Made by a program: the position numbers and the translations under genes. From the IMG/VR virus record IMGVR_UViG_3300043009_000039, positions 21,822 to 85,821 of that record: a stretch of 64,000 nt of DNA; one strand, 5' to 3'. The notes below the pieces were generated by a model, which was not told the origin of the DNA, made no database searches, and saw only the letters and a program-made list of their open reading frames with translations. Below are positions 8,517-61,589 of the stretch, piece after piece. The DNA comes from a virus (Duplodnaviria; Caudoviricetes). How positions within the stretch are numbered: the first letter of the stretch is position 1; each line of letters starts with the position of its first letter.

Positions 8517-8524
8517 ACTCGTCT

Positions 8525-8986
8525 TTATTTACGTTCCTTAATGATTGCCTTGCTGTCGCTCAGGTTGGTGACTTCCGAGTTGTATGCATATACCACGCAG
8601 TTGCTCGTGCCCGTTATTTTCACGGCGGAGTTGCAGAGGTATATCTCGCAGAGTCGGTTGACCTCTATTTCGCAATGGCTGTCAATAACCAGAACGACGG
8701 TAAATTCATTTTCAAAGTCATTCGTTCGGCAGTATATTGCAGAGGTGTAACCGTCTTTGTCGAAAACGCATCTGCCGTTTAGGAACTGTCCGAACTCTTT
8801 TTCTATGTAGTTCGAAGTTAGTCCCCATCCGTTGTAGATAGACTCCGCAATATACTGCAAGCCGCGAATGTTACAAGCCAAATCGAAGAGTTGCTTCTTC
8901 GACTTGGCCTTATCCCACTCTTCGCGCATGGAACAAATCCCGTGAAGAGCGGCTTTATGTCTGAAATCACGCAATTCGTCGTTCAT
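8525..8986 (-). CDS. Conserved-type hypothetical phage protein (153 aa), probably leaderless
   Basis: Clear ORF; -7 promoter box ends 4 nt from the ATG. Confidence 0.8.
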   Translation of the reverse strand: MNDELRDFRHKAALHGICSMREEWDKAKSKKQLFDLACNIRGLQYIAESIYNGWGLTSNYIEKEFGQFLNGRCVFDKDGYTSAIYCRTNDFENEFTVVLVIDSHCEIEVNRLCEIYLCNSAVKITGTSNCVVYAYNSEVTNLSDSKAIIKERK

Positions 8987-18489: not shown

Positions 18490-19233
18490 TTAATATATAG
18501 CGCGAATTTTTTTCAGCATGGAGTAGAAGCGCGGCTTGTCGAACGACATGCCCGTGGAGGTCTTGTACCCGAGGGCGTTCAAATCGTCGATAATCTCGAT
18601 TATGTCGCTGTTTCTATCCACCCGTCCGTTCTTGCTTTCGTAGCGGCAGATGTAACGGTAGAACCGCTGATTGCTCGCGTTGTTCTTGGCCGTTTCGCGT
18701 CTTGAAGCGGCGGATGCGGCATTGGCGGTGCTCAGGTCTGCGCCCTTATCACGGCCCAAATGCGTAATCGTCCGTCCCTTTCTCGACACGTGATGCCCGT
18801 TTGCCTTGATGTGCTCCTTAATCGACTCCAAGCCCGCTTTCGTCTGCAAGCTGATAGACAATGCTTCACGTTCGGCGATGGCGAAGAGAATCGTGATGGT
18901 GAACTTATCCGAGGAGGGTGCGTCGCAGAAGTAGATGTGCCCCTCCATCTTTTCCCATATAGACAACGCTTCGGCACAGTTTCTGAAACGGTTGCTCTTG
19001 GCTATCATCAAGGTGGCGCCCGTGCGTTTGCAATGCTCTATGGCTTTCTGCAACTGTACGCATTCGTTAAGCTCCGTCCCCGTGTAGACCTCTTCGTAGT
19101 CCGCGAGAAGTTCGCCGTTTTCAAATTCGACGAAAGCCTTGACGGTTCGAAGCTGTGCGTCAAGACCCAAGCCCGTTTCCCCCTGACGCCACGTGGATAC
19201 ACGACGCCAAGAGATGAATTTTTTCTTTTCCAT
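18490..19233 (-). CDS. Serine recombinase (resolvase/invertase family) with short C-terminal DNA-binding domain
   Basis: WRRVST catalytic Ser motif, GLDAQ, EVYTG, AKSNRFRN, FAIAEREALSISLQTKAGL. Confidence 0.9.
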   Translation of the reverse strand: MEKKKFISWRRVSTWRQGETGLGLDAQLRTVKAFVEFENGELLADYEEVYTGTELNECVQLQKAIEHCKRTGATLMIAKSNRFRNCAEALSIWEKMEGHIYFCDAPSSDKFTITILFAIAEREALSISLQTKAGLESIKEHIKANGHHVSRKGRTITHLGRDKGADLSTANAASAASRRETAKNNASNQRFYRYICRYESKNGRVDRNSDIIEIIDDLNALGYKTSTGMSFDKPRFYSMLKKIRAIY

Positions 19234-21588: not shown

Positions 21589-22532
21589 CTAATTAAACAG
21601 CTCGTTTCGCTCGTCGGGTAAAGTTTTGTTACATCTTGCGAGCACTTTTCTAACAGCTTCACGGAAAGTCACGCCGTTGTTTGTGTAGTTCATGACCATG
21701 TTGTAGAGCTTGGGGTAGGTTTTATAGAGCAGGTCGAACTTGTCCTCGAACTGAATCGAGAATCCGCATCCTACGCATCCCGTTCTGTTTGCACCCTGAT
21801 GGTAGACTTCGGCTATTTCGAGGTTGTAACGTTCGACATATTCGAGGATGTCTTTCTCCGTCCAAACAGAGAGAGGATTCGACATGCTCCGTTCGCCGTA
21901 GTAGTTACAGCCCTGATGTCTGAGCCACGTACCCGCACGCATCTGACTCTCGCTTGCCATCATCCCGAGGATTGGCGAGCGACCCGTCTGATGTTCGAAT
22001 TTCTTGAAAGGGTCTTTTTTGAGTTTGTCACAGCATCGGTTGGTGCAGTCGTAAGGTTCGTCTATCAGGTACCGCCATTTCAGCGGCAGGATGTAGCAGC
22101 CTTTGCGGGCCATAAACTTTTGAGAGGTGGCGGTGTTCGGGTCGTGACGTATTCGTCGAATCTTGTCCGATGTTTCCTTGCTTACGAGAGGGAATCCGTA
22201 TTCTTCCCAAACTTGCTTCGGGGTCAGTTTCGGGTAGATGGTCAGGATGTTATACCCCCCCTATGTTTAAGTTTGTTAACAAGGCTGACCACCGACGGGT
22301 TCTCATTTCGGGTGTTGCAGAACACGGCGAGAATGTCGGGGTAGATTCGTCGGCAGAGGTCTAAGAGTACCGTACTGTCGCGACCGCCCGAGAAGCCGAC
22401 ATAGACTTTATCCAATCCTCCCATTCGGGTAACGAACGAGGATATGACGTCGAGGCTGTGTTGAATCTTCTGCTCGAGCGACCATTGCTGTCTTTCTTCG
22501 AGGTCTTTGTAATCCAATTTCATAGGTTCCAT
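21589..22532 (-). CDS. PAPS-reductase-family (PP-loop, Fe-S) protein, split by a -1 frame change at a G7 tract
   Basis: N part FSGGRDSTVLL...NTRNE; C part CCDKLKK, GMMASES, RTGCVGC. The linking YGFPLVSK segment is in the -1 frame directly after G7 (22255-22261). Confidence 0.85.
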
Positions 22533-22571
22533 GTTTTGGTGAGTGTGAGCGGCGTCGTGCCGCCCGTAATG

Positions 22572-22847
22572 TCATTTGTTTTTCAATTCATCGCGAATCT
22601 CGGTAAGCAAGCGGACAATCTTGGTAAGTCCTACCCAGAAACCCGTGCCGACCACCGTAAAGCCCAAGACTATGAGACCATGTATGAACCCATCGGCTTT
22701 CCACAGAATCGCTTTGCAGAGCGCCGCCGCGGTTCCAAACGAGATGATGCCGGACAAGACCGCAACTATGTAGAGGAATGTTTCGGCTCCGCTTTTCGAG
22801 ATTGCTACGTTTTCTTTTGCTTCGTTGTTTACTTCATTTGTGTTCAT
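22572..22847 (-). CDS. Two-TM membrane protein (91 aa; start MNTNEV)
   Basis: Two hydrophobic helices; module upstream of the ATG at 22847. Confidence 0.75.
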   Translation of the reverse strand: MNTNEVNNEAKENVAISKSGAETFLYIVAVLSGIISFGTAAALCKAILWKADGFIHGLIVLGFTVVGTGFWVGLTKIVRLLTEIRDELKNK

Positions 22848-22971
22848 AACCGTAAGTTTTAGTTTCTGCAACATTGCATTGCGGACGGTCTGCTTTGACC
22901 GCCCTGAACCAACAAAACTTAAATTACGCCGCCATAGGCGGAGAGTGGGAGGCGGGTGAACCTCCCGTGTT

Positions 22972-23379
22972 TTAGTAGGTGTAGACAATCTCGTTGAAGA
23001 GAATTATCTGCCACAAGACGCTTGCATCGCTGACGTCAAACTCGCCCGATTTGAACAATGTAAACGCGCCGTAAGCCGCTATCAAATCTTCCTCGCCGTT
23101 AGCCTTAAAATTGCCGTCTAACGCATTTTTAAGCCCTCGTTGGATGTCCTCTAAGGAAACGAAGTAAACGCGGTCTCCGAGGCGATTTATGGCGTTTCTG
23201 AGCGTGCCGTATATTTCGATGTCATTATCGGTCGCCACCTTGATTGTGCCGCCCTCTTGGAAGAGCCGATGCGGGTCTGTATCTCCGTCGAAATACAAGT
23301 CCTCGTTGCCGTAAAGCGTGAGAATCAAATCTTCAAGGTCTGCTGCCGTAAGCTTTTCAATAAATTGTTTGTCGTTCAT
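22972..23379 (-). CDS. Acidic cassette protein (135 aa)
   Basis: ORF with upstream module. Confidence 0.8.
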   Translation of the reverse strand: MNDKQFIEKLTAADLEDLILTLYGNEDLYFDGDTDPHRLFQEGGTIKVATDNDIEIYGTLRNAINRLGDRVYFVSLEDIQRGLKNALDGNFKANGEEDLIAAYGAFTLFKSGEFDVSDASVLWQIILFNEIVYTY

Positions 23380-23430
23380 AACTAAAAGTATTTGGTGAGT
23401 GAAAAGCGGGCGGCTCTCACCGCCCCGAAA

Positions 23431-23793
23431 TCAGGACAGCTCATGGAATACTTTTTCGACAGCCTCCTCTAAACGGATATACGCCTGCGAGGACGTTTTG
23501 TAGTCGCCGACGTACATCTCAACCATGATTTCGCCGTGTTTGGTCATGATGATTTCGCCCGAGCGGTCGTCCTCTTCGCCCACTTCACTCGGGTAGAAGC
23601 CCATGTAGAGTGACTTGTTCCGTCCTATCTCGCAGGTGATAACCATTGACTTCCTCCCTTTCTGCCACTTTACGTCGCTGAAGAATGCGTGAGGAATGTA
23701 AGGCTCTTCGCACCAGTCCTTGATGCCGAGCTTGTCAATTACTTCTTTCAGCACATCGTATGCCGAGCATTTCGTTAAATCGAACTGTTTCAT
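23431..23793 (-). CDS. Cassette protein (120 aa)
   Basis: ORF with upstream module. Confidence 0.8.
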   Translation of the reverse strand: MKQFDLTKCSAYDVLKEVIDKLGIKDWCEEPYIPHAFFSDVKWQKGRKSMVITCEIGRNKSLYMGFYPSEVGEEDDRSGEIIMTKHGEIMVEMYVGDYKTSSQAYIRLEEAVEKVFHELS

Positions 23794-23930
23794 AGATTAC
23801 GTTTGTTTGGTGAGAAAATAGAAGGAGGGTCTTGTTCAAACCCTCCCTGCCTTGCATATCCGTCGCGGATGGCTCGGCTTCTGAAATACTTAAACAATTA
23901 TGAATCAGCGGGAGGTTTTCACCTCCCTTT

Positions 23931-24008
23931 TTAGTCCGCCCTGCCGTTTGTGAGGTCTGCGAACACATTCAAAATCTCAACGGCAAGAACAATGATGAAA
24001 AGCAACAT
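23931..24008 (-). CDS. 25-aa hydrophobic peptide (not in the ORF track)
   Basis: MLLFIIVLAVEILNVFADLTNGRAD; starts 13 nt after the stop of 24022..24210. Confidence 0.5.
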   Translation of the reverse strand: MLLFIIVLAVEILNVFADLTNGRAD

Positions 24009-24021
24009 AAAGGTAAGGTTT

Positions 24022-24210
24022 TTATCGGTTTGACAATTCTGATTCGATTAATTTTTTCAACCCCTGACGGGTATCCGCTTTCACGAACGTATAATATTTG
24101 CCGCCCGTGTCGAAGAATGCCTCGAACATTCCCTGCGGTGTCATTCTTATAGAACCGATGTAGTTGCCGTCACGTTCAATGTTTCCGTTTCTTTTAAATA
24201 CAATTTTCAT
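24022..24210 (-). CDS. Cassette protein (62 aa)
   Basis: ORF with upstream module. Confidence 0.75.
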   Translation of the reverse strand: MKIVFKRNGNIERDGNYIGSIRMTPQGMFEAFFDTGGKYYTFVKADTRQGLKKLIESELSNR

Positions 24211-24255
24211 AACTTGTAGTTTTTAATTGGTTTGTGCAGTCGGGTTGCCCCGACT

Positions 24256-24633
24256 TTATTCATTAGACATAATCTCATCAAGAAGCTTTTCCAATTTAAG
24301 CCCAATCTCTTCCAACGTTTTTTCCGAGCCGAGTCTTATTGCACTTTTAAAGATGTAAAACAAATCCTGCGTCCGAAACTCTCCGTAATCGCAGACCGTT
24401 TCACTTCCGTCCGTTTCATTGCATATGTAATCTGCTATTTCGTTTTTATAGAACGTTGAAAAATTGATGTAATCGTTTACACAAGCAAGATAAAAGTTGG
24501 CGAGCCAGCTCTTACCCAAATAATCTCTTTCGGGATAATTCTCGTTTTGGCTTTCCAAACTGAAATGCTTCTTGCACACTTTTACCACGATGACGTTAAA
24601 TTCTCTTACTCCGAGTTCTTTAAATGTAATCAT
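24256..24633 (-). CDS. Cassette protein (125 aa)
   Basis: ORF with upstream module. Confidence 0.8.
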   Translation of the reverse strand: MITFKELGVREFNVIVVKVCKKHFSLESQNENYPERDYLGKSWLANFYLACVNDYINFSTFYKNEIADYICNETDGSETVCDYGEFRTQDLFYIFKSAIRLGSEKTLEEIGLKLEKLLDEIMSNE

Positions 24634-24690
24634 AATTCTAAGTTTTAATCGGTTAATAATTGGCGAGCGGTCTTGTCGACCGCTTTAAGG

Positions 24691-24930
24691 CTAAACATAG
24701 CGCACTGCCCGGCCTTTACTTTTCGACAGCTGTTGGCGCAACAATTTTTTGTAGCCTCTTATATTGCATTCCATATTTCTGACGCATTCGTATGCCTCCG
24801 CTTTAGTCCAGAAGTAATATGTGTATTGCCAATACAAATCATATACAAACCACATTTTACCGCCTGAAACATCACACAGCCCTGCAAATCCAATGTTTTT
24901 ACCTTTGTTGAATGATTCTAATAGTGCCAT
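24691..24930 (-). CDS. Cassette protein (79 aa)
   Basis: ORF with upstream module. Confidence 0.75.
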   Translation of the reverse strand: MALLESFNKGKNIGFAGLCDVSGGKMWFVYDLYWQYTYYFWTKAEAYECVRNMECNIRGYKKLLRQQLSKSKGRAVRYV

Positions 24931-24993
24931 AATATCTGAGTTTTATTGGTTGAACATGGTGAGCGGTCGTAAGTCCTACAACCGCTCTTTAAG

Positions 24994-25539
24994 TTACAGC
25001 TCGCAGATGCCGATAACGTAATTGTGAGAGTCATAGCTGAACTCGACGGGCTGTTGCTTGACGGTATCGTAAAGCTCGCCGTTACAGATAATCAGCATCT
25101 CATCATCGTTTTTATCGTAAGCCGCGTCGCAGATTTTTTCGAATTGCTCTACCGCATCTTTTACTTCTTCGATGCTGTCGGCGTTTTCAAGCATCTCCAT
25201 AAGATTGCCTTTATTCTCTTTGAAATACTGTTGCCCCGTACCGTAAAACGTAATGCAGTCGTCAGACAGATAACGCTCTACGTCTATACCGTCACACATC
25301 CAATCGCGGAGTCTTGTGTAGAAATGATGCCCGTCGGGTCTGTCAAGCTCGAAGATGCATGTCTTTTTGAAGTACTTCTCTGCGACTTCGTTTGCAACGT
25401 CCATGTCCCTGAAGCCTATCAAAGCTTCTCTGACACCGTGAGGAAAATCGCTTTTGTCGTCGTTGGTTTCAACAATTCTAAGACTCGGGTAAACGTCCAC
25501 AATGTGCTGTAACTTTTCGGAATATTCTTCTCGTGTCAT
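24994..25539 (-). CDS. Acidic cassette protein (181 aa)
   Basis: ORF with upstream module; D/E-rich C-terminal half. Confidence 0.8.
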   Translation of the reverse strand: MTREEYSEKLQHIVDVYPSLRIVETNDDKSDFPHGVREALIGFRDMDVANEVAEKYFKKTCIFELDRPDGHHFYTRLRDWMCDGIDVERYLSDDCITFYGTGQQYFKENKGNLMEMLENADSIEEVKDAVEQFEKICDAAYDKNDDEMLIICNGELYDTVKQQPVEFSYDSHNYVIGICEL

Positions 25540-25594
25540 AATGTATAAGTTTTATTGGTTAGTAGTAGCGGGCGGGACGTCCCACCCTTAAAGG

Positions 25595-25978
25595 TTAGAA
25601 TTGAATGACCGAGCGTTTGTATTCCCAATGCCTTGCGTCCATAATCCTTGTCCGTTTCAGCTGACACAACGTGTATATCTTGTGAATATACTGAATGATT
25701 GCGGCTGTCGGGCGGGCGTCCTTTATGCAGTCCGCATTCTCTTCCGCAAACTTTCTCTCGTCAAACTCGGCGGAGTCTACGATTCTCTTTATGCCCGTGT
25801 TTACCATATCTCCGTCGTCATACAATACGTAGCAATAGACTTCGGAATAATTATCGGACAAAGAGCGCAGGGCGTTTTTCTGATATGTTTTCTCGTTTTG
25901 TTTCGCCGTTTTCTTTTCAGCTCCCTCGGGATTAATGTTGAGTAACGGCAGTCTGTCATAATACATATTCTTTTTCAT
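25595..25978 (-). CDS. Cassette protein (127 aa)
   Basis: ORF with upstream module. Confidence 0.8.
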   Translation of the reverse strand: MKKNMYYDRLPLLNINPEGAEKKTAKQNEKTYQKNALRSLSDNYSEVYCYVLYDDGDMVNTGIKRIVDSAEFDERKFAEENADCIKDARPTAAIIQYIHKIYTLCQLKRTRIMDARHWEYKRSVIQF

Positions 25979-26027
25979 AATCGTAAGTTTTGTTAGTACT
26001 CGTAGTCGGCCCGCAGACCGACTTTGG

Positions 26028-26369
26028 TCAATAAACGCTCTGTGGGTAATTTTTTAACGCCCAATCAATCGCTGATTGGCACTCTTTACGGGTTTTCCAC
26101 TTAACGCCCACGCCGTTTAATTTTTGCGGTATGCCATGAAGATAGTCATATACCACCCACCATATTTTGCCGTCCAACGCTTCGCGTTTGATTGGCCTGA
26201 ATCTGCCGAACAGTGCGCAGGAGCATTCAGCGAGTGTTCCTTTGCATTTAAATTCTCCGTTCAGATACGCGGTGTAGTACATATCGCCCATACAGTTCCA
26301 ATGGCGGTCAATTTCTCCGTATTTACCGCGATATTCATTCTTGGTGAACCATTGTGCATAATTTTCCAT
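26028..26369 (-). CDS. Cassette protein (113 aa)
   Basis: ORF with upstream module. Confidence 0.8.
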   Translation of the reverse strand: MENYAQWFTKNEYRGKYGEIDRHWNCMGDMYYTAYLNGEFKCKGTLAECSCALFGRFRPIKREALDGKIWWVVYDYLHGIPQKLNGVGVKWKTRKECQSAIDWALKNYPQSVY

Positions 26370-26421
26370 AATCGTAGCTTTATTGGTTAGATATTGTGGG
26401 CGGCTCTCGCACGCCCTTTGT

Positions 26422-26706
26422 TTAGAGTCTGCTGTAATATTTCAACAACGCGGCACAAATGTAGTAGTCATTGTAGTATCGCATCCATCCGCCGCTTATG
26501 AGCATATCGTTTATCTCGCTGTCACGGAGCTTTCTTGTTTCCCGCTCTTCGATATACGATACTTTCATTGTTTCCTCATCAACCGCCTCGATTTTGAACA
26601 ACCCGTGACACAAACGGTCGTCGTCATCATCCGTGAGTTGTTTGAGGGCGTCATAAACATCTTCTGCACTGTATGCAAATTCTACGGTTTTTTCTTTTGT
26701 TTCCAT
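26422..26706 (-). CDS. Cassette protein (94 aa; start METKEK)
   Basis: Module directly upstream of the ATG at 26706. Confidence 0.75.
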   Translation of the reverse strand: METKEKTVEFAYSAEDVYDALKQLTDDDDDRLCHGLFKIEAVDEETMKVSYIEERETRKLRDSEINDMLISGGWMRYYNDYYICAALLKYYSRL

Positions 26707-26753
26707 AATTCTTGTTTTTATTGGTTGGTTGCGGGCGGCATTAACCGCCACAA

Positions 26754-27038
26754 TTAAGGCAATGTTACGTAATAAAATCCGCACCCCTCTTTGATAAAAT
26801 TAAAACCGTTCTGTCTAACCCAGTCAGCAAAGCCGATAAAATATTTACCGTTTACCTCCAAATACTCCCCGTAAATGGTTTTCCCGATTTTCGCGTCCGG
26901 TCTATCGAGGTAAAGATATTGAAATTCAATCCGTACACGAGTTTTTCCTTTCATAAAGAGTTCTGTGAGGTACTTTTCGATTTGGCTGTAATCCAAATCT
27001 TTCGTCAAATCTGCTTTAATCTTTTGTGCTAAGTTCAT
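26754..27038 (-). CDS. Cassette protein (94 aa)
   Basis: ORF with upstream module. Confidence 0.8.
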   Translation of the reverse strand: MNLAQKIKADLTKDLDYSQIEKYLTELFMKGKTRVRIEFQYLYLDRPDAKIGKTIYGEYLEVNGKYFIGFADWVRQNGFNFIKEGCGFYYVTLP

Positions 27039-27180
27039 AATATGTAAGTTTTAGTTGGCAATTGTTAGCGGTCTGTGACCGCTATCTTTCAATCGGTTAA
27101 AAAAACGTGATTCATCAATTGTTTCGGCACGCTTAACAGAACCGGGACAACCCACACGCCCCCGAAGGATTCATTATCAT

Positions 27181-27417
27181 TCAGCGCTTCGGCAAGCTCT
27201 TCGTATGAAAAAATCCAAGCTCTTCTTCGGAATAAATCTCTTCCTCGGTAAGATTGAATGTTTTTTCCATCAATTCAAGCGCGTCAATATTGTCATCGAA
27301 CTTCTCCAAGTAGAACGCTTCAACGAATTTGCTTCTTTCGATTTCTTTACCGTTAACCGATATAGGACATACGAGAAAGAACGGTTCGTAACCGTCATGA
27401 GTCATAGTAATCTTCAT
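27181..27417 (-). CDS. Acidic cassette protein (78 aa; start MKITMT)
   Basis: Module directly upstream of the ATG at 27417. Confidence 0.75.
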   Translation of the reverse strand: MKITMTHDGYEPFFLVCPISVNGKEIERSKFVEAFYLEKFDDNIDALELMEKTFNLTEEEIYSEEELGFFHTKSLPKR

Positions 27418-27471
27418 AATTATAAATTTTAGTTGGTTAATAATGTGGCCGGCCCGAAAGCCAGCCAATGT

Positions 27472-27756
27472 TTATGAAAGAGTGAAGTTGCCACGGTATA
27501 GCTTGAACACCATCGCTTGCGCTGTGTCGTACAATTTATCAAGGACTTGATTCTGCTCCTTTCGATGAGCCTTGTATTGCTCTTCGCTTGTAATCACTCC
27601 TTCAGCGATGAGCCTTTTTGTCTCGGCAACCTGCTTGGAGATAATCGCAATCTCGAGTCGTCTGTACTGGTCTCTGATTTCGAATATCGACTTGCCATTC
27701 GGCTGTAACTTCACCCATGAGGCTAATTTTTTGCCTACATTGAATCTCTGTTTCAT
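27472..27756 (-). CDS. Cassette protein (94 aa)
   Basis: ORF with upstream module. Confidence 0.8.
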   Translation of the reverse strand: MKQRFNVGKKLASWVKLQPNGKSIFEIRDQYRRLEIAIISKQVAETKRLIAEGVITSEEQYKAHRKEQNQVLDKLYDTAQAMVFKLYRGNFTLS

Positions 27757-27808
27757 AATTTCTATTTTATTGGTTAAACATTGGCGAGCGGAGTAATCCG
27801 CTCATTGA

Positions 27809-28219
27809 TTACCACTTAACTTGTTCTACCTCGTCAAGCTCTTTGCGAATCGTGTCTATCAGCTTTCGAGTCAAAGTAACATCTTCGCACCCATACTCTA
27901 TAACGGACGGACATTGGTTAATCAGCGATATTACGCCTTGTGTAACCATTAAGACCATGTAATCTTCAGGGTCGTCAAACGGGTCTGTATAAGGGCCGCT
28001 GAGAACATCCCTTTCAAATTTCCAATAAGCCGACGCATCGGCACGCCATTCGCACAAGTATTCCAAGGCAAGCTCTTCGGACTCGGTGAGCGTGCCGTTG
28101 TAGTTTATGTCGTCCATAATGTAATCGCCTATATCACTTGCTTTGACTTCCATATCTTCTTTCCAAGGCAACTGCATTTTAGCCATTTCGCGGCAGTAAT
28201 CAGTGAAATTCTTTTTCAT
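27809..28219 (-). CDS. Acidic cassette protein (136 aa)
   Basis: ORF with upstream module. Confidence 0.8.
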   Translation of the reverse strand: MKKNFTDYCREMAKMQLPWKEDMEVKASDIGDYIMDDINYNGTLTESEELALEYLCEWRADASAYWKFERDVLSGPYTDPFDDPEDYMVLMVTQGVISLINQCPSVIEYGCEDVTLTRKLIDTIRKELDEVEQVKW

Positions 28220-28268
28220 AATTGTAAAGTTTTAAGTTTAGTTGTGAGCGGTAATAACCGCTCATTGA

Positions 28269-28811
28269 TTAGAAAGTGAGCACAAATTTATCATACGTAT
28301 CCGAGTCCGCCACCTGCTCCATCTTCCCGCCAAGAAAGACGGCAACACCATAGTAGCAGCTCATCCCGCAACCGCTTTCAAAGTATGGTCGGAATCCGCC
28401 GTTACCGTAGTGTGCGCCAAGCGGGGCTTTTTTAGCTTTTCTTCTGCAACGCCACAACATTCCGCGGCATAACTGATTCATTACGTCGGCTACCACGGTG
28501 GATTTTTTGTCGTAGCCCCAACCGCTGCAAGTGGCAGAGGCTTGCTTCCAATGTCCGTCGGAATACTGCGCCCATGCGGTGGCGTGCGGGTTGTAGCCCC
28601 AAGTTTTGTTGCGCTTCCATTCGATGTCGATTTCAAGCCGCTTTACGGGAAGCTCTTTATCCATCTGCTCAAATTCATCGTTTGCTCTCTTCAGCTCACC
28701 TCGTATGCCTCGCATCGTGGCTTTCTTTGAGTACTTTACGATATGTTCGATACACTTTACGGTAAGGTACGGATAGTCGTTTCTCAGGCTCTTTAATTCT
28801 TTGCGTGTCAT
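28269..28811 (-). CDS. Basic cassette protein (180 aa)
   Basis: ORF with upstream module; contains CSGWGYDK. Confidence 0.8.
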   Translation of the reverse strand: MTRKELKSLRNDYPYLTVKCIEHIVKYSKKATMRGIRGELKRANDEFEQMDKELPVKRLEIDIEWKRNKTWGYNPHATAWAQYSDGHWKQASATCSGWGYDKKSTVVADVMNQLCRGMLWRCRRKAKKAPLGAHYGNGGFRPYFESGCGMSCYYGVAVFLGGKMEQVADSDTYDKFVLTF

Positions 28812-28865
28812 AATTTCAAGTTTTTAATTGGTTAGTAATGGGTGTCGGGTCGCCCCGACAAATAA

Positions 28866-29210
28866 TCAAAACGTTTCGGAATGAACCCAAACGTTCCGTA
28901 TTTCTATACGGATATACATTTCTCCGTTCTGATTAAAAACGTACATGTCGGTAAACTCATTCCATAGGTGAGTCCCATCGTGCCCGTTATGCACGGCTGT
29001 TATTTTAGTTATGTCGCCCCACGTCAGACGCTCTGCGATTTTACTATTCATAAAGTCACGCGCAAGCGCTTCGGTCTTGAAAGTGAAGCTGTCGATATTC
29101 GGCATGCGGGTTATTTTCGACGGTGTGTAATTTCCGCACATTTCGCCCAATCCTGAATAAGTTTCTTCAATGATACTTACCACATAAACGTATTCTCTTT
29201 TATTTTCCAT
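28866..29210 (-). CDS. Cassette protein (114 aa)
   Basis: ORF with upstream module. Confidence 0.8.
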   Translation of the reverse strand: MENKREYVYVVSIIEETYSGLGEMCGNYTPSKITRMPNIDSFTFKTEALARDFMNSKIAERLTWGDITKITAVHNGHDGTHLWNEFTDMYVFNQNGEMYIRIEIRNVWVHSETF

Positions 29211-29244
29211 AATTTAAAAGTTTAATTGGTTGATTGCAAGGGGA

Positions 29245-29565
29245 TTACTCCCCTTTTTTGAACAGCTTGATTAAGACTTTGTCGCCTCTCTTGTAATAGC
29301 AGTGTTCGATTTCAAAGTGACTGTTCAACCGCCACTCCATTTCACCGAACGCTTTTGCGTATTCATTGTTGTCGTCGGCTTTCGAATAGTAGAAGAGAAG
29401 CTCGTCCGAGCCGTATTCCCATCCGAGAATTACGGGCGTTCGGCATATAAAGCCAACTGCACGGCATTCTTCGAAAATATACTTGTCGTCGAATACCAAA
29501 TTGCAAATCTTCTTCACTAACTTGTCGTCGTAGTCAAATACTGCGGGATTCAATTCTTCTTTCAT
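29245..29565 (-). CDS. Cassette protein (106 aa)
   Basis: ORF with upstream module. Confidence 0.8.
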   Translation of the reverse strand: MKEELNPAVFDYDDKLVKKICNLVFDDKYIFEECRAVGFICRTPVILGWEYGSDELLFYYSKADDNNEYAKAFGEMEWRLNSHFEIEHCYYKRGDKVLIKLFKKGE

Positions 29566-29611
29566 AATCTTTAAGTTTAATGTTGGTTGCGGGCGGAATA
29601 CTCCGCCCTTT

Positions 29612-29938
29612 TCAATCTTTGTGGTAAAAGGTTAGAAAGTAATTGTAGCTCGTTTTCCGAGTGTCTACGTAAATATCTTCGGGTAACGACTGTTTGACCG
29701 CCTCGATTCTGTCCTCCAACCGTTTCATGGAAGCCACGCTGATTGGCGATTCGGCCACGCATATCTTCAGGCGGTTGGTCGTTACGGCGTATGTGGCGCA
29801 GATTGGGACATTTGCGGCATAGCCGACCGACATTTCCTGCGACACTACTCTTGTGTCGAGGCGGCGGCCCTCGTCGAACAACTCATCATAGATTTCACTT
29901 ACCGAGATTGATTTTCCGTTTAATAATGCTCTCATCAT
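29612..29938 (-). CDS. Cassette protein (108 aa)
   Basis: ORF with upstream module. Confidence 0.8.
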   Translation of the reverse strand: MMRALLNGKSISVSEIYDELFDEGRRLDTRVVSQEMSVGYAANVPICATYAVTTNRLKICVAESPISVASMKRLEDRIEAVKQSLPEDIYVDTRKTSYNYFLTFYHKD

Positions 29939-29988
29939 AATTCAAAAGTTTTTAGGTGTGCGGTAGGCAAAGATAGCCTACCTTTTGT

Positions 29989-30633
29989 TTAATACGGCGT
30001 CCCATCTTCAAGAAACTCGTATTCGTTCAAATTCAGTTCTTCTTCGACCGCCTCGTCCGAATAGCCCCAATCCACGTCGTCACCGTAGGCATCGGCCAAG
30101 GCGTCCACGCTTTTCTGTATCAAATCCTCCATCGTCGTATCGTTGTCGGGATGCTTCATGTAATCGACAATCGGCTGTATCACCTCATAGTCGCAGCATA
30201 CGCCCGTGAGCGGATAACTTGCCTCGGCGTCGTCGTACATTATTCGGCTCTTGCGCTGTTTCTTGTAGTCGCCCCGATAGAATGTACGCGGCTTGACCAA
30301 ATACGGCATGATGTTGTTGCGTATGTACCGTTGAAGCAGTTTGCCGGACAACTCTTCAAGGCAGAGGTATTCGCTACCGTCCTCGGTGTCTATCATGTAG
30401 CACCAAGAGTCGTCGTTGAACTTCGGGCTGAACCATGTGCGTCCGCGGTCGTCTTTCACGTCGATACGTATGTCAAGCAGCTTCTCGAAAGCCTTGAGCG
30501 TTCCGATATAGTCGTCGGCGATACATTCTTCGTGATATGCGGCGCATTCGCCTCGCTTTGATTCAATCGCTTTTTTCTTTGCTTCTTCGGAAAGTTCGTC
30601 GTACTTGTAAAGTTTTACTTCTAAGGTTCTCAT
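29989..30633 (-). CDS. Acidic cassette protein (214 aa)
   Basis: ORF with upstream module; YKYDELSEEAKKKA...YEFLEDG termini typical of a mobile-element hypothetical family. Confidence 0.8.
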   Translation of the reverse strand: MRTLEVKLYKYDELSEEAKKKAIESKRGECAAYHEECIADDYIGTLKAFEKLLDIRIDVKDDRGRTWFSPKFNDDSWCYMIDTEDGSEYLCLEELSGKLLQRYIRNNIMPYLVKPRTFYRGDYKKQRKSRIMYDDAEASYPLTGVCCDYEVIQPIVDYMKHPDNDTTMEDLIQKSVDALADAYGDDVDWGYSDEAVEEELNLNEYEFLEDGTPY

Positions 30634-30680
30634 AATTTCAAGTTTTAAGTTGGTTAATCGCGAGGGGCGAACCCCTCAAT

Positions 30681-30908
30681 TTACAAGACCTCGTGAGGCA
30701 GAACAGTGTCACGCGATACAACGTCGAACTCATGTGTGGAGCCGTTCAATTTAAGCCCGTAAATGTGCGCGTATTGGATTTCTCTCGCCCACATGGATAG
30801 ATTATCCAACTGCATCCTAAAACGCCTTAGAGCGGCATTTTTAGAGGTAAATATGGCTTTATAGCCGCAGGTCTGTCTGTCGAAAATTCTCAATTCATAA
30901 ATTATCAT
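30681..30908 (-). CDS. Cassette protein (75 aa)
   Basis: ORF with upstream module. Confidence 0.75.
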   Translation of the reverse strand: MIIYELRIFDRQTCGYKAIFTSKNAALRRFRMQLDNLSMWAREIQYAHIYGLKLNGSTHEFDVVSRDTVLPHEVL

Positions 30909-30957
30909 AGCTTCTAAGTTTTATTGGTTGGTTGCAGACGGATTGCTCCGTCTTGAT

Positions 30958-31149
30958 TCAATATCCCTGCAGGTACGACGGGGCTTCGTCGTCCTCGGTT
31001 TCACAAGCTCTGTGACGTTCCACAATTTCACAGTTGCAACCGTAGTTCATGAGCAGTTCTTCGCGCACGTCCGACGCTTCTTCGTATGTGTCGAAACAAT
31101 CTTCAATGCATCCCGCGGCTTTATTCCAAAGTTCAAATTCAGTGTACAT
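30958..31149 (-). CDS. Acidic cassette protein (63 aa; start MYTEF)
   Basis: Module upstream of the ATG at 31149. Confidence 0.75.
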   Translation of the reverse strand: MYTEFELWNKAAGCIEDCFDTYEEASDVREELLMNYGCNCEIVERHRACETEDDEAPSYLQGY

Positions 31150-31192
31150 AATCAATTAGTTTTAGTTGTGAGCGGATTGCTCCGCCCGTGAT

Positions 31193-31711
31193 TCATTGTT
31201 GACCCCAATAAGTCCATGTTTTAACCTTTGACATTCCGTAGCGTTTGAGGTACGTCCGAAGTCGTTTCTCGAACTTGTCGCGTTCTTCGCGAACAAATCG
31301 TTCAAGCGGCTCGTAATCCTCTTCTTTCGGTTCGATACAGCTGTCGTAGTTGTGCCCCGAAATTCCGTAGATGTTCGCCTCTTTATAGGCGGTCATTTCG
31401 TAATGGTAGAGGTAGACTTCGCGTTTGGCGATACACTCGAGCATCCAGTCGTATTCGCGAAGATTCTCTTTCATGAAGTAGTCTTCGCTTGTACGCGCGT
31501 ATTCAGCTTGTTCGACCGCTCTGTTATAATCGAAGCTGTCGTCAAAGCAGAACTTTGTCTCAATGCGCGGCTTGCCTATAATTACGATTTTACCGTCGTC
31601 AAGTTTGATTGCATTCGAGAATCCCCGCATCATATATTCGGGGTTAAGGCCCATCTTTTCATATTCGCGCATGATTTCATCCTGCAATTCATGTTGCTTG
31701 ATATTCTTCAT
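31193..31711 (-). CDS. Cassette protein (172 aa)
   Basis: ORF with upstream module. Confidence 0.8.
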   Translation of the reverse strand: MKNIKQHELQDEIMREYEKMGLNPEYMMRGFSNAIKLDDGKIVIIGKPRIETKFCFDDSFDYNRAVEQAEYARTSEDYFMKENLREYDWMLECIAKREVYLYHYEMTAYKEANIYGISGHNYDSCIEPKEEDYEPLERFVREERDKFEKRLRTYLKRYGMSKVKTWTYWGQQ

Positions 31712-31812
31712 AATTCTAAGTTTTAGTTGGTTAAACAGTACGCGGCAACAGCTCGGGCCGCCGCCGCGTTTTTTAAGGCTGTACTATACAGCCCTCGCCA
31801 AATACCTCTCGG

Positions 31813-32148
31813 TTAATTCTTATACACCCTTTGGTTAATTCTTTTCACATACAGCGACCACGTTGTAAAGTGATTGGTTTCAAGGCATTGGCACGTCACA
31901 CGGCCTATCAGGTCGCAATAGCCCTTTGTTTCGGGCGTGTTCATGTAGGATTCCGTGATTCGGTAAGTTCTTTCGGGTTCGCCGGGCGCTCTGTAAAACC
32001 ACGAGCCGCAGCGCACACCGTATTCGATTTCCCGCATCTGTTCCTTTGCTTTCTTCAAACTTGTAAATGCAAATGTCGGAATGGAGCATGATTGCCACGT
32101 ACTGCCTTCAGTCCACTGATGTTCGTTGATAATATAAATATAATCCAT
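31813..32148 (-). CDS. Cassette protein (111 aa)
   Basis: ORF with upstream module. Confidence 0.8.
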   Translation of the reverse strand: MDYIYIINEHQWTEGSTWQSCSIPTFAFTSLKKAKEQMREIEYGVRCGSWFYRAPGEPERTYRITESYMNTPETKGYCDLIGRVTCQCLETNHFTTWSLYVKRINQRVYKN

Positions 32149-32209
32149 AATGATAAGTTTTATTGGTTTAACACGGCAGACGGTCTTTCAACCGTCTTTT
32201 TGCGGATAA

Positions 32210-32581
32210 TTACTCATCTTCGTCGTCGTAGCTCATCTCGATACAGTCGTGCCAATCGCCGTCGGCGTATATTTCGTCGGAGTAATAATCCGCCTCCCAC
32301 TCCACGTCCTCTTCACTTGCAGACACAAATCTTCCGTTGGCGTCCTGCAGGATATAGCGGTCGGCGAGGTTCACTTGTCCGCCCCGCAGGTCGCGCACGA
32401 GTTCCATCGGATTGTCTTTGTATCGCTGAATATTAAAGAAATCTTCGTTCAGCTCATGCCACACACAATCGTAGTATCTCTGATTCTCGAAATATCGGTT
32501 CAGCAGGGCCAATCGTTGGCCATGTGTCAGACTCTTAAATTTTTCTTTCCATGCTTCGCGGCGAGAATATTCTTTTTCCAT
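32210..32581 (-). CDS. Cassette protein with very acidic C-terminus (123 aa)
   Basis: ...SEEDVEWEADYYSDEIYADGDWHDCIEMSYDDEDE; upstream module. Confidence 0.8.
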   Translation of the reverse strand: MEKEYSRREAWKEKFKSLTHGQRLALLNRYFENQRYYDCVWHELNEDFFNIQRYKDNPMELVRDLRGGQVNLADRYILQDANGRFVSASEEDVEWEADYYSDEIYADGDWHDCIEMSYDDEDE

Positions 32582-32643
32582 AATTCATAAGTTTAATCGG
32601 TTAATAATTGCAAGAGGTCGGTCGGGAAACCAACCTCTTCGGC

Positions 32644-32949
32644 TCAGACAAGTTCAATGTCGATTCCATACGGAAGCGATTCGCTATTTTCGTAATAGTC
32701 GAATTTATACGTAGGTCTAAGGCCCAGTTCGCGTTTACATAAGCGTTTTTCTATCACCTGCTTTATCTTCCCCTCGTCGATTACTTTCGTAAGTTCGACT
32801 TCGTAATGTGGCGTAGACGTACCGATTGTTTCGTGCGTGATTCGTGCAATTGCAACAAGTCCGTGGAACTTGTCATAAAAATAGATGCCGCTCGCCGCGA
32901 ACACTACGTACATTTCAACTCCGTAATTCTTGGTTCTTAAAAATTCCAT
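32644..32949 (-). CDS. Cassette protein (101 aa; start MEFLRT)
   Basis: Module upstream of the ATG at 32949. Confidence 0.75.
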   Translation of the reverse strand: MEFLRTKNYGVEMYVVFAASGIYFYDKFHGLVAIARITHETIGTSTPHYEVELTKVIDEGKIKQVIEKRLCKRELGLRPTYKFDYYENSESLPYGIDIELV

Positions 32950-33011
32950 AACTGTAAATTTATTGGTTAGCTGTAAGAGGTCGCGTGACGACACACAACC
33001 TCCGATTCGTT

Positions 33012-33281
33012 TCATTTGTCAAGCGTGCAAGTCGCATAGTAAGGCGAAAAGCAACCGTCTTTATAAAGCGACGCCGCATAGCCCCGACGGGTCTTGTAGA
33101 CTTTCACGCAGCCCGATTCATACGAGCTTCGTTCTTTGCACACAAAGCCCCCTACCGCCTTGTAGGTTTTCGGCTTCTTTTCTTTCGGTTTGATTGAACC
33201 CGCGTAATGCATTGTCACGCCCGTAAACAGTTCGCCGTTTACCTTAAAAGGCTTTTCAGAGGTAAGTTTGTAAGTTTTCAT
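33012..33281 (-). CDS. Cassette protein (89 aa)
   Basis: ORF with upstream module. Confidence 0.75.
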   Translation of the reverse strand: MKTYKLTSEKPFKVNGELFTGVTMHYAGSIKPKEKKPKTYKAVGGFVCKERSSYESGCVKVYKTRRGYAASLYKDGCFSPYYATCTLDK

Positions 33282-33341
33282 AATTCAGTAGTTTTATTGG
33301 TTCGTGGAAGAGGGCGTGTTTTCGGGCACACCCTCCGTAAT

Positions 33342-33467
33342 TCAGTCGATTTCGACCGTCGAATCGTTCAAATCCACGTGCGCGTATAAATCTTCGGCAA
33401 AGTCGGGTTCTATAAACTCTTCAAATACGCGCAATTCGCCTTGGAAATAAATAGTTCCGTCAAGCAT
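33342..33467 (-). CDS. 41-aa strongly acidic peptide (not in the ORF track)
   Basis: MLDGTIYFQGELRVFEEFIEPDFAEDLYAHVDLNDSTVEID; its start overlaps the stop of 33460..33645. Confidence 0.65.
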   Translation of the reverse strand: MLDGTIYFQGELRVFEEFIEPDFAEDLYAHVDLNDSTVEID

Positions 33468-33645
33468 TTTTGTTTCCTCCCTTCTTTTCGTCGGTCGGGT
33501 CTATTATTTCCCCTATCGGAAACACGCCCATAAGGCCCGACAGAAACGCCAAATAGCAAACATCCGTGCCCATAAAGTTGTAGAACACAAACACGGCGAA
33601 AGCTTCAAAGAATACAAACAGAAGAAACAGATAAATCGTTCTCAT
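33460..33645 (-). CDS. Two-TM membrane cassette protein (61 aa)
   Basis: Hydrophobic; upstream module. Confidence 0.75.
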   Translation of the reverse strand: MRTIYLFLLFVFFEAFAVFVFYNFMGTDVCYLAFLSGLMGVFPIGEIIDPTDEKKGGNKNA

Positions 33646-33708
33646 AATTCATAAAGTTTTATTGGTTGGTAACAGTAAGCGGTTCGACCCCGAAAGAGCC
33701 AAACCGCC

Positions 33709-33969
33709 TTAATTCATTCCCATCCCCACGGACACAGCTCGCCCGCGGGGGGTAATCTGCCACGACAGTTCGTTCCTGCCGTCGTAGATAGTCCATCCGA
33801 TGCCGTTGTCGCCCCTTTTATGCAGGGCGATATGCAGACAGCGGCGCACGATTCGCTTCAGTTCGGTTGAGTGTAAAGTCTTACAGAAACTTTCACTCGC
33901 GATAATTGCGGAAAACTCACCCTTTCGGGCAAAGTTCGTCCATGCGATTTCATCGTAAAAGGTTTTCAT
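33709..33969 (-). CDS. Cassette protein (86 aa; start MKTFYD)
   Basis: Module upstream of the ATG at 33969. Confidence 0.75.
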   Translation of the reverse strand: MKTFYDEIAWTNFARKGEFSAIIASESFCKTLHSTELKRIVRRCLHIALHKRGDNGIGWTIYDGRNELSWQITPRGRAVSVGMGMN

Positions 33970-34030
33970 AAATAGTTTTATTGGTTGGTTCGGAGAGGGT
34001 TCGCCCCGATACGGTTTGAACCCCCTGATT

Positions 34031-34216
34031 TCAGGCGAACATATCGTACAGTTCTTCAAGGCGTGCCTTTGCGTCCTCGATTCGGGCGAATAGAGTCGTT
34101 CGGTTCCAGTACTCGAAGTGATTCTTTTCACCTACTGTTTCAAACGAAATTTCGGCTACTTGTCCGTCGTGTTCGTAGCTGTTCCATGCCACGTAATAGT
34201 AAGTTTTTGCTTTCAT
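34031..34216 (-). CDS. Cassette protein (61 aa)
   Basis: ORF with upstream module. Confidence 0.75.
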   Translation of the reverse strand: MKAKTYYYVAWNSYEHDGQVAEISFETVGEKNHFEYWNRTTLFARIEDAKARLEELYDMFA

Positions 34217-34284
34217 AATTTATTAAGTTTTATTGGTTGGTTAATTCGCAGACGGTTCGACCCCGAAGAATCGAACCCCCTGAT

Positions 34285-34722
34285 TCAGATTTGGTCCAGA
34301 AAGTCGGCCAAGTCTTTTTCCGTAGCTTTCAGTCCGAGCGCACGTTTGCGCATCAGATATTCTTTGATTCCGAATCGGGATATAAGAACATCCCGATTTG
34401 ATTCGTCCTGAAAGAGTCGGTCGATAAGTTCGTCTTGCATAGCAAGCTCGTACTTCAGATTTTCGGCCTCCTGCTTCGACGCTTCCAGTTCTTTGCGAGC
34501 GTCCTCCAACGCTTTCGCAGTCCCTTTGAGGTCTGCGATAATCGCATAGTTCTTCCGCGCTTCGTTTACCGCGGACACAAACAAACCCTTTGTGTTTTCA
34601 GGGAGTTTGCTCCAAATTTCACAGAACATATTTTTATCTAACTCGCAGAACATATAGATATAGTTCGCAACTTTGTACTCTTCGGCCTTGCAGCCTCTTT
34701 CGATAAATTCATTAAGTAACAT
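34285..34722 (-). CDS. Coiled-coil cassette protein (145 aa)
   Basis: YMFCELDKNMFCEIW motif followed by a heptad region; upstream module. Confidence 0.8.
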   Translation of the reverse strand: MLLNEFIERGCKAEEYKVANYIYMFCELDKNMFCEIWSKLPENTKGLFVSAVNEARKNYAIIADLKGTAKALEDARKELEASKQEAENLKYELAMQDELIDRLFQDESNRDVLISRFGIKEYLMRKRALGLKATEKDLADFLDQI

Positions 34723-35018: not shown

Positions 35019-35372
35019 TTAAGCAAAGTAATTCTTTACAGTTTGGTAGTCCAGTCCGTAACGCTTACGTATTCGCGCAATTTCGGCGTTAAATTCGCGT
35101 GCTGAGTCGAAACAGCACAGTTCGAGGGCTTTAATCAATTCAAGCCCGTAAAGGCTCGGATTATTCACCTCGATAGCTCGCAGTTCGCCCCGACGGTTTC
35201 GGGCGCAATTATCCACGAATTTTATCGTTTCTTTGTACCCTTTGCCCGCCCCTTTCTTTTTTCGGCTCGATACGACGTATTTGCCCCGATTTTTCGGTTC
35301 AGGCTCGCACGGTTCAGGCTCGCACGCTTTTTTAGCTTTATAAAGCCCTTCATAGTACTCTAATAAGTTCAT
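35019..35372 (-). CDS. Cassette protein (117 aa)
   Basis: ORF with upstream module; short internal tandem repeat (CEPEPCEPEP). Confidence 0.8.
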   Translation of the reverse strand: MNLLEYYEGLYKAKKACEPEPCEPEPKNRGKYVVSSRKKKGAGKGYKETIKFVDNCARNRRGELRAIEVNNPSLYGLELIKALELCCFDSAREFNAEIARIRKRYGLDYQTVKNYFA

Positions 35373-35452
35373 AATTGTTTAAGTTTGGTTCATAGTCCGA
35401 CGCCCAGTAGTAAGGGCGTTTCGTCGCAATTCTCAGCGACTCTTCAGGGACT

Positions 35453-36700: not shown

Positions 36701-36923
36701 ATCTATATAAGTAAGTAGTAGGTACTTTGCGAGCGGACGACGCACCACCGCGTTTTTTGGTCAAAAATAGAAGAAAATTAGCTATTTTGGCGTAAAAGTC
36801 ACTTTCCGAAAAACAGAATAATTTTAAGGGAAAAAAGAGTATATAGGTATAATAGAAACTACCTACATTTGTGCTGTAGAATGAAACAAGCCCCTGCAGG
36901 GGCAAACTTAAATACTTACAATT

Positions 36924-37691
36924 ATGAAAAAAGAAACAAAGAAAGCTACAAAGGGGGCAAAGAAAGCCACGGCAAAGAAAGCCGAAAGCGAAAGCACGGC
37001 GTTAACCGTTATTGCCGAAACAAACAATAACGCCGAAACTGAAACAGTCGACGCCGAAACAGTCGAATGCACGACGTTGGTACTTTGCACGGCAAAGAAA
37101 GCAAAAAAGGAAAGCGAAAGCGAAAAAAAGGAAAGCGCAAACTTTCGAAAAGCTTTCAAGACTGAAGCAAACAGTTACGGCGCGGCTATCCGTAACATGC
37201 AGGCAATTGCAAGCAAAGGAAATAAGCGGGCGCAAAAGATATTAGCCGCTTTCGGCTTGTCGACAAAATCGAGCGCAAAGGAAATTAGCACGGCCCGCGC
37301 CGCTATCTTTGCCGCGTATCCTTTTGCAACGGCTGAAGGTACTCTTTGCCGTTTTCGCTTACTGAATACTGAAGAAAGCGTTTTTTGTGGCCTGAACAAA
37401 AAGCTTTTCGGCGTTTTTGAGGCGGCGAAAAGTTGGGGCGAAATTCTTGATGAAAGCTACATTAGCACGGTTAAGGGCCGCGCGCAAGCTATTATCGAGC
37501 CGCTAACCGTCGAAAGGGAAAGGGGGGTTATTTCCTTTGTATACGCGCCTTTATATTGCATCGACGGCGCGAAAGTAGGCAAAGATTATAGCCGCGAATA
37601 TACGGCGTATCTTTGCGCGAAAAGCGACGCTAATAAAGCGGCAAAGAATGCACGCGCGAAAGCTTTCGAAGAAAGCACGACAAACGAATAA
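36924..37691 (+). CDS. Orphan Ala/Lys-rich protein (255 aa), divergent from the array
   Basis: Long ORF; upstream GCCCCTGCAGGGGC palindrome and AAATACTTACAATTATG start like the array modules; TACATTTG -7 box at 36864-36871. Confidence 0.8.
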   Translation: MKKETKKATKGAKKATAKKAESESTALTVIAETNNNAETETVDAETVECTTLVLCTAKKAKKESESEKKESANFRKAFKTEANSYGAAIRNMQAIASKGNKRAQKILAAFGLSTKSSAKEISTARAAIFAAYPFATAEGTLCRFRLLNTEESVFCGLNKKLFGVFEAAKSWGEILDESYISTVKGRAQAIIEPLTVERERGVISFVYAPLYCIDGAKVGKDYSREYTAYLCAKSDANKAAKNARAKAFEESTTNE

Positions 37692-40414: not shown

Positions 40415-40465
40415 GGGTGCGGCGCAGTCGGGCGCTTATCGGGTTCGAATCCCGCGCATCCACCA
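40415..40465 (+). ncRNA. tRNA-like element lacking an anticodon arm (ends in encoded CCA)
   Basis: GGGTGCG/CGCATCC acceptor stem, GCGC-AGTCGG-GCGC D-like arm, CGGG-TTCGAAT-CCCG T arm, ACCA. Confidence 0.7.
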
Positions 40466-40573
40466 TGCGGCGACTTAGACCTTCAAGTTTGTTAAGTGTT
40501 TAATTAAATGGGTGTTAGTATGCTTATCTTGATTACTTGGAGTATTTTGGCAATGGTCGAAGTTGTCGCAGAC

Positions 40574-61482: not shown

Positions 61483-61589
61483 TTTACATTAACCAATAAA
61501 ACTTGAAATAATCTTTAATGGAAAGAAATTTTCAATTTTATCCTTAATTAACTCTATGCTTAGTGAAATGATATGAAATAAAGAATGTC

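Follow-up and report, generated by a model that had tools for sequence, protein, structure and literature searches.

The element described here belongs to a spacer of 228 nt, close to the distal end of an array of small early genes, within the window (the whole stretch of 64,000 nucleotides analysed, bases 21822-85821 of an 85,821-bp IMG/VR record rated complete). The spacer, like the array, reads on the minus strand, and its features were the following:

24021-23794, minus strand: spacer, read in the order stop codon of gene 24022..24210, mini-ORF, GGGAGG/CCTCCC hairpin, 5 nt, candidate anti-leader, 5-bp hairpin, 11-bp hairpin, leader
23930..24007, minus strand: putative 25-codon hydrophobic mini-ORF without a canonical leader, its stop directly preceding the next hairpin
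23910..23927, minus strand: GGGAGG/CCTCCC hairpin of 7 bp with a 4-nt loop, just after a TAA stop and an A-run and 5 nt 5' of the candidate anti-leader
23888..23904, minus strand: candidate anti-leader, complementary to the leader, the AUG and two further bases of gene 35019..35372
23884-23887, minus strand: extension which, together with 23888..23904, complements the leader of gene 36924
23858..23870, minus strand: small 5-bp hairpin between the candidate anti-leader and the terminator-like hairpin
23812..23848, minus strand: 11-bp hairpin (23848-23822) and its U-rich tail, in which 6 of the 10 nt that follow are U
23794..23815, minus strand: non-consensus leader of gene 23431..23793

The 11-bp hairpin at 23848-23822 was the most terminator-like sense-direction hairpin of the whole array, and therefore the 23888 element occupies a 3'-UTR-like position, as does a related copy at 61491 described below. 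The initial annotation had placed a GGGAGG...CCTCCC hairpin before the element, as at 22907, and this hairpin was indeed located at 23910-23927, on the 5' side in the array transcript. The mini-ORF at 23930-24007 begins 14 nt past the stop codon of gene 24022..24210, is hydrophobic in its N-terminal half and has neither a hairpin nor a leader. No protein-level similarity of the spacer to anything in this phage or in its array-bearing relative was found, nor any pseudogene signal, and with no such similarity the reading as a decayed gene was rejected. In addition, cmscan of 22400-24300, with both strands searched at E up to 1, gave no Rfam match.

The early-gene array and its relatives

The array comprised about 33 small minus-strand genes, from 35710 down to 22572, over approximately 13 kb. 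Nearly every spacer contained a stop codon, a short A-rich stretch, a variable GC-rich hairpin and a G-poor leader. The shared leader was composed of AACCAAT, AAAACTTA, 3-5 nt and ATTATG, and with few exceptions the hairpins had no U-tract in the sense direction. Gene 35019..35372 is the second gene of the array and the first past a hammerhead-like spacer (35394-35452, minus strand), in which the core motifs are visible by eye and cmscan reported none at E up to 1. Gene 36924..37691 is a lone plus-strand gene, with a TAnnTTTG-type box and a hairpin ahead of it and a leader of the same subtype as that of 35372. Ribozymes have been proposed to cut long phage transcripts into gene-length mRNAs (PMC3088659). 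From this idea and the hammerhead-like cores, we infer that the leader is best read as the 5' end and the translation signal of processed early mRNAs.

The window encodes phage proteins for replication and recombination, namely an SbcC-like nuclease, a DnaB-type primase-helicase, a sliding clamp, a replication initiator and a serine invertase. The GenBank matches of its large terminase were only phages of Bacteroides, Phocaeicola or Parabacteroides or from gut samples, at about 25% identity, and therefore a host of the Bacteroidales type is likely.

A single true relative with an array was found, G014 (IMGVR_UViG_3300045988_114184, 82.8 kb), whose structural and replication genes have 30-60% protein identity to those of this phage. 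Its array has the same design with wholly unrelated genes; as no array genes are common to both phages, the arrays appear to turn over fast. In both phages, the array is followed within a few kb by the gene of a serine DNA-invertase homolog (window 18490-19233; G014 8036-8827; 35% identity). Among the other terminase relatives, the array part was absent or other leaders were used, and a group of phages of 86-88 kb had single leader copies, with no array and no DNA similarity. A first scan with a leader pattern returned chance hits only. No relatives of the genes flanking the element were found in IMG/VR, GenBank phages or metagenome contigs, and a set of 5.8 billion proteins contained, for the flanking gene, only the identical protein, on 5 contigs.

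A separate clade (G028, L201; G029, L010; G030, L005) has the same G-poor leader before many small genes and, in several spacers, hammerhead-like cores (CUGAnGA, GAAAC, GUC) with predicted cleavage directly before the leader. None of these cores was reported by Rfam at the gathering threshold, and no opposite-strand leader copies were found in these three genomes.

The inverted 17-mer and its chance expectation

The plus-strand 17-mer at 23888-23904, ACTTAAACAATTATGAA, is the exact reverse complement of 35368-35384, which in gene 35019..35372 runs from leader position -12 through -1 and the ATG to the two bases that come next. This inverted match to the 35372 start had been annotated from the beginning. 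An exact search of the window and of the whole 85,821-bp record corroborated it, with copies at 23888-23904 (plus strand) and 35368-35384 (minus strand) only, and the pair is the longest inverted exact repeat of the 85.8-kb genome. The match has sharp edges and unrelated flanks; extended homology around it was not significant, with an upstream hint of 12/16 (anchored P 0.08). The likeness to the start of gene 36924, annotated as complete save for a 2-nt indel, was reproduced by blastn-short, in which 23884-23904 aligned to 36910-36928 with 19 identities over 21 positions and one gap of 2 nt (E 0.006). Given that gene 36924 is on the plus strand, this second match is a same-strand one. The 9 nt at 23884-23892 occur again in the leader of gene 35710, the first of the array.

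A chance match between two AT-rich non-coding stretches had to be weighed against these results. Length alone is not rare, as some inverted 17-mer was present in 36-51% of shuffled genomes (P 0.36-0.51), and three unrelated exact inverted 16-mers also exist in this genome. To that extent, the reservation that such matches are common was justified; however, the result was the opposite once position was counted (P 0.008-0.011). In the position-aware test, the 32 array start regions were held fixed and the genome was locally shuffled 1000 times, and an opposite-strand exact 17-mer copy of an array start region appeared in 0.8-1.1% of the shuffles (P ~0.01). Moreover, the other arm of the repeat falls in a long array spacer beside a second anti-leader copy. 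The observation is thus real and beyond chance once its position is taken into account; pure chance is disfavoured, and we hold it to be very improbable. With k=15, opposite-strand copies of array starts were found at three loci (23888, 36916 and 61489) against 0.1 expected k-mer hits, the 36916 locus being a real gene start.

The 16-nt inverted repeats just mentioned (20594/54959 and 16016/40629 in the window, and position 6673 of the genome with 48901 of the window) have their arms 24-64 kb apart. Genome-wide, there were 7 inverted 16-mer pairs versus 1.4-1.9 in shuffles and 23 inverted 15-mer pairs versus 5-7, leaders and palindromes accounting for part of this excess.

The two arms of the 17-mer could also be crossover sites of the serine invertase (18490..19233). 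A flip of the 11.5 kb of the array between them would put the 23910-23927 hairpin and its T-run in the sense direction just past the array head. Both phages have a DNA-invertase homolog past their arrays, and in G014 the longest inverted leader match likewise joins an inverted module to the first array gene. However, sites of the hix/gix type are imperfect dyads around a 2-bp core, and no such symmetry was seen when the 17-mer was inspected. The predicted inverted junction was not found in metagenome contigs, a weak negative because records near this genome may be missing from them. We regard crossover sites as extremely improbable.

Predicted partners and sibling copies

Two other opposite-strand copies of the leader, both of the consensus type, were found in the window:

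22905..22928, minus strand: candidate anti-leader of the consensus type, located in the long spacer that follows some 1 kb later on the array transcript, with an architecture kept in G014
61488..61512, minus strand: candidate consensus-type anti-leader ahead of a minus-strand terminator

The copies at 22907, 61491 and 23888 all adjoin hairpins on minus-strand transcripts, and the 22907 unit, like the 23888 unit, opens with a GGGAGG/CCTCCC hairpin directly past a stop codon. They differ in the part of the leader that is covered: the copies at 22907 and 61491 include the distal AACCAAT box, end before the AUG and are predicted to pair with most canonical leaders, whereas the 23888 copy includes the proximal half and the AUG and prefers two non-canonical leaders. 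When the 13.3-kb sense RNA was scanned against all leaders with a sliding RNAduplex, the strongest locus was 22906 (median energy z about -9.6), and 23881-23910 was the second non-coding outlier (z about -4.1, best energy -20.4). These two outliers are less than 1 kb apart, each in an unusually long spacer. The median energy of the 23888 element with all leaders was about 3 sd beyond shuffles, the weakest general complementarity of the three copies.

The 23-nt core of the 23888 element was paired by RNAduplex with 33 start regions, and the predicted partners and energies were:

35368..35384, minus strand: best putative target, 17/17 contiguous pairs over the AUG, -19.8 kcal/mol
36910..36928, plus strand: second putative target, 9 bp, 2-nt bulge and 10 bp, -16.5 kcal/mol
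Start region of 34216: -14.2 kcal/mol
Start region of 28219: -13.9 kcal/mol
Median of the 33 partners: -10.1 kcal/mol
23794..23815, minus strand: leader of the local gene 23431..23793, worst partner (33/33), -5.2 kcal/mol

The leaders of 35372 and 36924 are alike, and therefore the two top targets count as one event. With these same two leaders, the 22907 copy gave -15.4 and -12.0 and the 61491 copy -7.4 and -4.9, their medians over leaders being -17.9 and -12.6, respectively. The predicted targets of the 22907 and 61491 copies overlap (Spearman 0.71); both copies favour the canonical leaders of genes 24210-34722 and are weak on 36924, 35710, 35372 and the three genes downstream of the anti-leaders. 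The ranking by the 23888 element had a Spearman coefficient of -0.01 versus that of the 22907 copy and of -0.33 (p 0.065) versus that of the 61491 copy. Leaders that were weak for both generic copies had a mean of -13.0 with the 23888 element, versus -9.6 for the other leaders. The deviant leaders at 23794-23815, 23380-23405 and 22848-22872 (starts 23793, 23379 and 22847) ranked 30-33 of 33 for the 22907 copy and 22-31 of 33 for the 61491 copy, as if these three genes were to evade the generic anti-leaders in the pairing model.

The fold of 23935-23794 had a z of -4.5 versus shuffles, mainly because of the GC hairpins, and its minimum-energy structure, in which 23900-23906 and 23892-23897 are paired with the local leader, represented 4% of the ensemble. 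In the predicted local ensemble, the 5' half of the element was paired with a probability of 0.7-0.9 and the 3' half with one of 0.1-0.4; the latter being mostly unpaired, it is conceivable as a pairing seed. The minimum-energy structure and its z-score would also agree with a local structural element, in which cis pairing between the anti-leader and the leader of 23431..23793 would close a multi-hairpin fold and lower the translation of that gene, and the units at 22907 and in G014 fold analogously. Nevertheless, the GC hairpins account for most of the z-score, the minimum-energy structure is a small part of the ensemble, and the local leader is the worst partner of all. The 22907 unit (30/33) and the G014 unit (11/13) likewise rank their local leaders low. 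The rank of 33/33 speaks against a fold that is local only. On this ground, we rejected a main role in sequestering the local leader in cis, and we consider the local element quite improbable.

The array of G014 contains one non-genic inverted leader copy (L140:2311-2338). This module and the 22907 unit have the same succession of a stop, a GGAGG-type hairpin, a second hairpin, the inverted leader, a GGGCGG-type hairpin, a small hairpin, a leader and a small membrane protein gene, and on the opposite strand both are canonical hairpin-plus-leader modules without the ATG. The survival of the module across so diverged a pair argues that inverted leader modules can be functional and are not all junk. 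With its own leaders, however, the G014 module was not an energetic outlier, which weakens an anti-leader reading for the whole family. Compared with these two modules, the 23888 element has the same placement: its array spacer is a long one, a GGAGG-type hairpin close to a stop comes first, and more hairpins and the next leader follow. It departs from them in lacking the AACCAA box, in having 39 nt between the hairpin and its partial leader, and in keeping the ATG. In G014, the sole array-bearing relative, nothing that corresponds to the 23888 unit was found. Of the earlier description of a second anti-start RNA with the architecture of 22907 and another target subset, the different predicted targets and the hairpin after the stop were borne out, while the missing box and the missing G014 counterpart told against it.

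A 13-nt string is shared by 40481-40506 of the window and L140:2323-2335, within the inverted leader copy of the G014 array, with no other DNA similarity in the stretches compared. The former is part of a 108-nt spacer between two mini-tRNAs. It was tried as a fourth anti-leader and discarded, being energetically weak (median -8.2 versus -5.6 for shuffles).

The absence of a counterpart in G014 bears on another explanation, according to which the element is an unused relic of module shuffling. A leader-plus-start piece of the 35372/36924 subtype would have been copied or inverted into the spacer, perhaps at the loss of a cassette, with the hairpin-plus-leader modules serving as recombination joints. 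This explanation, which the initial annotation had named as its alternative in the form of a relic of an inverted cassette, comes close behind the anti-leader reading and is nearly as likely. On the plus strand, the spacer resembles a gutted cassette (hairpin, half leader, ATG, next hairpin) and lacks the distal AACCAA box, the two phages have no array genes in common, and the upstream hint of similarity, though weak, points in the same direction. So does a degenerate start in the sense direction in another long spacer: at 27086-27124, within the 142-nt spacer before gene 27038, there are a leader-like stretch, an ATG and an 8-codon frame, which look like the remnant of a lost cassette. On the other hand, the 17-nt identity is perfect amid unrelated flanks, so that a relic needs either a very recent event or selection, and the spacer has no pseudogene signal. 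The placement of the hairpin and the terminator, the nearby second anti-leader and the complementary target range would then all be coincidences.

The plus strand could also be the functional one. A TAnnTTTG-type box at 23798-23805 would drive an RNA of about 120 nt ending at the 23910-23927 hairpin and its T5, with a sense copy of the leader and a 17-codon ORF; such an RNA could be cis-antisense to the array spacer, a leader mimic or a tiny gene. This strand has a -7-like box as well as the hairpin with T5, and on it the element forms a direct repeat with the leader of 36924, a real gene, and keeps the ATG, unlike the inverted modules of 22907 and G014. Furthermore, G014 has an sRNA unit with promoter and terminator (c4-2), whose upstream mini-ORF opens with the same three codons. 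Against this, the box has a chance expectation of about 0.06 per strand in 228 nt and is the complement of the local leader, the -33 box is absent at the usual spacing, the 17-codon ORF crosses the hairpin and has no detectable relatives, and Rfam gave no match on either strand. The T-run was rejected as a special terminator because a stop codon and an A-rich stretch precede most array hairpins, T-runs after the hairpin being their general by-product across the array. A plus-strand unit therefore appears improbable to us.

Comparison with known systems and proposed role

As is proposed for the 23888 element, the C4 antisense RNA of phages P1 and P7, which is reportedly processed by RNase P, is a phage RNA from the operon of its own targets, with short complementarity to the ribosome-loading or start region. 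The trait of the c4 clan, antisense complementarity to a start region of the same phage, is present in the element (17/17 with 35019..35372 and 19/21 with 36924). In contrast to c4, it has no c4 fold, having a linear antisense stretch of 17-21 nt between hairpins where c4 has two short loops, and its putative targets are either 11.5 kb or so upstream in the array transcript or part of the transcript of the opposite strand. As for the release of a discrete small RNA by processing of the operon transcript, the features seen are the flanking hairpins and a U-rich tail. The c4 clan (CL00128; c4, c4-2, c4-a1b1) gave no cmscan match in 22400-24300 at E up to 1, nor in the whole window at the gathering threshold. 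In G014, a true c4-2 RNA (RF02944, 61 bits) was found at L140:17200-17277, with a TAnnTTTG-type box and a 7-codon mini-ORF ahead of it. The c4-2 hairpin loop has complementarity to the start of this mini-ORF, 27 nt upstream. The slot of the window syntenic to it is occupied by the mini-tRNA pair 40415-40622.

The cassette joints of T4-type phages are said to be promoter-early stem-loops (PeSLs). The array modules are like them in being repeated units of a hairpin plus an initiation site at the boundaries of small early genes, which are gained and lost, and a stray fragment such as the element could arise in this way. PeSLs contain promoters, whereas the array modules have no promoter consensus and look like RNA punctuation. 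Also unlike PeSLs, the related phages have hammerhead-like ribozymes in the slot taken here by the array hairpin module.

Start-region antisense RNAs are established in phage P1 and also in Bacteroides, where the FopS/GibS sRNAs block initiation on the first gene of polycistrons (PMC11697453). In Bacteroides thetaiotaomicron, these sRNAs form a multicopy family with overlapping targets, one member of which is derived from a 3' end (PMC11697453, PMC7366714). Their layout is a single-stranded seed followed by a terminator hairpin; the 23888 element is followed by the terminator-like hairpin 23848-23822 with 6 U in 10, and only its 3' half is predicted to be unpaired. However, FopS/GibS are host-encoded and have their own promoters and a conserved family sequence, whereas the element is phage-encoded and embedded in the operon of its putative targets, and no Rfam match to this family was found at 22400-24300 on either strand at E up to 1. 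The element would add a subset-specific member to the start-region anti-leader elements, and not a new principle.

Our preferred interpretation of the 23888 element is that of a candidate anti-leader RNA, specific to a subset of leaders and carried on the early array transcript itself; we give it a probability of roughly 0.38. This anti-start reading is coherent and plausible, and rests on sequence logic in a single genome. Its location in a long spacer, after a stop-proximal hairpin, next to a terminator-like hairpin and less than 1 kb from the 22907 copy speaks in favour of it. The AU-rich duplex, the predicted pairing of the 5' half and the missing counterpart in G014 speak against it. A polymerase reaching the spacer, some 11.5 kb past the start of 35372, would produce an RNA segment, the end of which may be at 23822-23812. 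Its anti-leader, with a 3' half (23884-23891) that is partly unpaired, could then use this half as a seed on the leaders of the head-of-array genes, and initiation would be blocked by a duplex of 17 bp that includes the AUG. The consensus-type copies at 22907 and 61491 might act likewise on canonical leaders, genes 23793, 23379 and 22847 would escape through their deviant leaders, and the combined outcome would be a delayed shut-off of early translation.

Taken as a whole, such an arrangement would be a translational timer within the early operon. Anti-leaders at the distal end of the array (22907 and 23888) and in a 3' UTR (61491) would shut off early proteins, the 23888 element being the one for the non-canonical leaders of 35372 and 36924, and genes located downstream would bear escape leaders. 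This wider proposal is doubtful at present. If the element is instead a relic, it documents the shuffling of hairpin-leader modules.

If the anti-leader function is real, a phage of Shine-Dalgarno-poor hosts would time the shut-off of dozens of early genes with only a few short antisense segments that are part of the early transcript, with a division of labour between consensus-type and subset-specific anti-leaders. Start-region antisense control, as in C4 of P1 and FopS of Bacteroides, would then be extended to a one-to-many relation within an operon, and a testable rule would be available for reading the early-gene arrays of uncultured gut phages.
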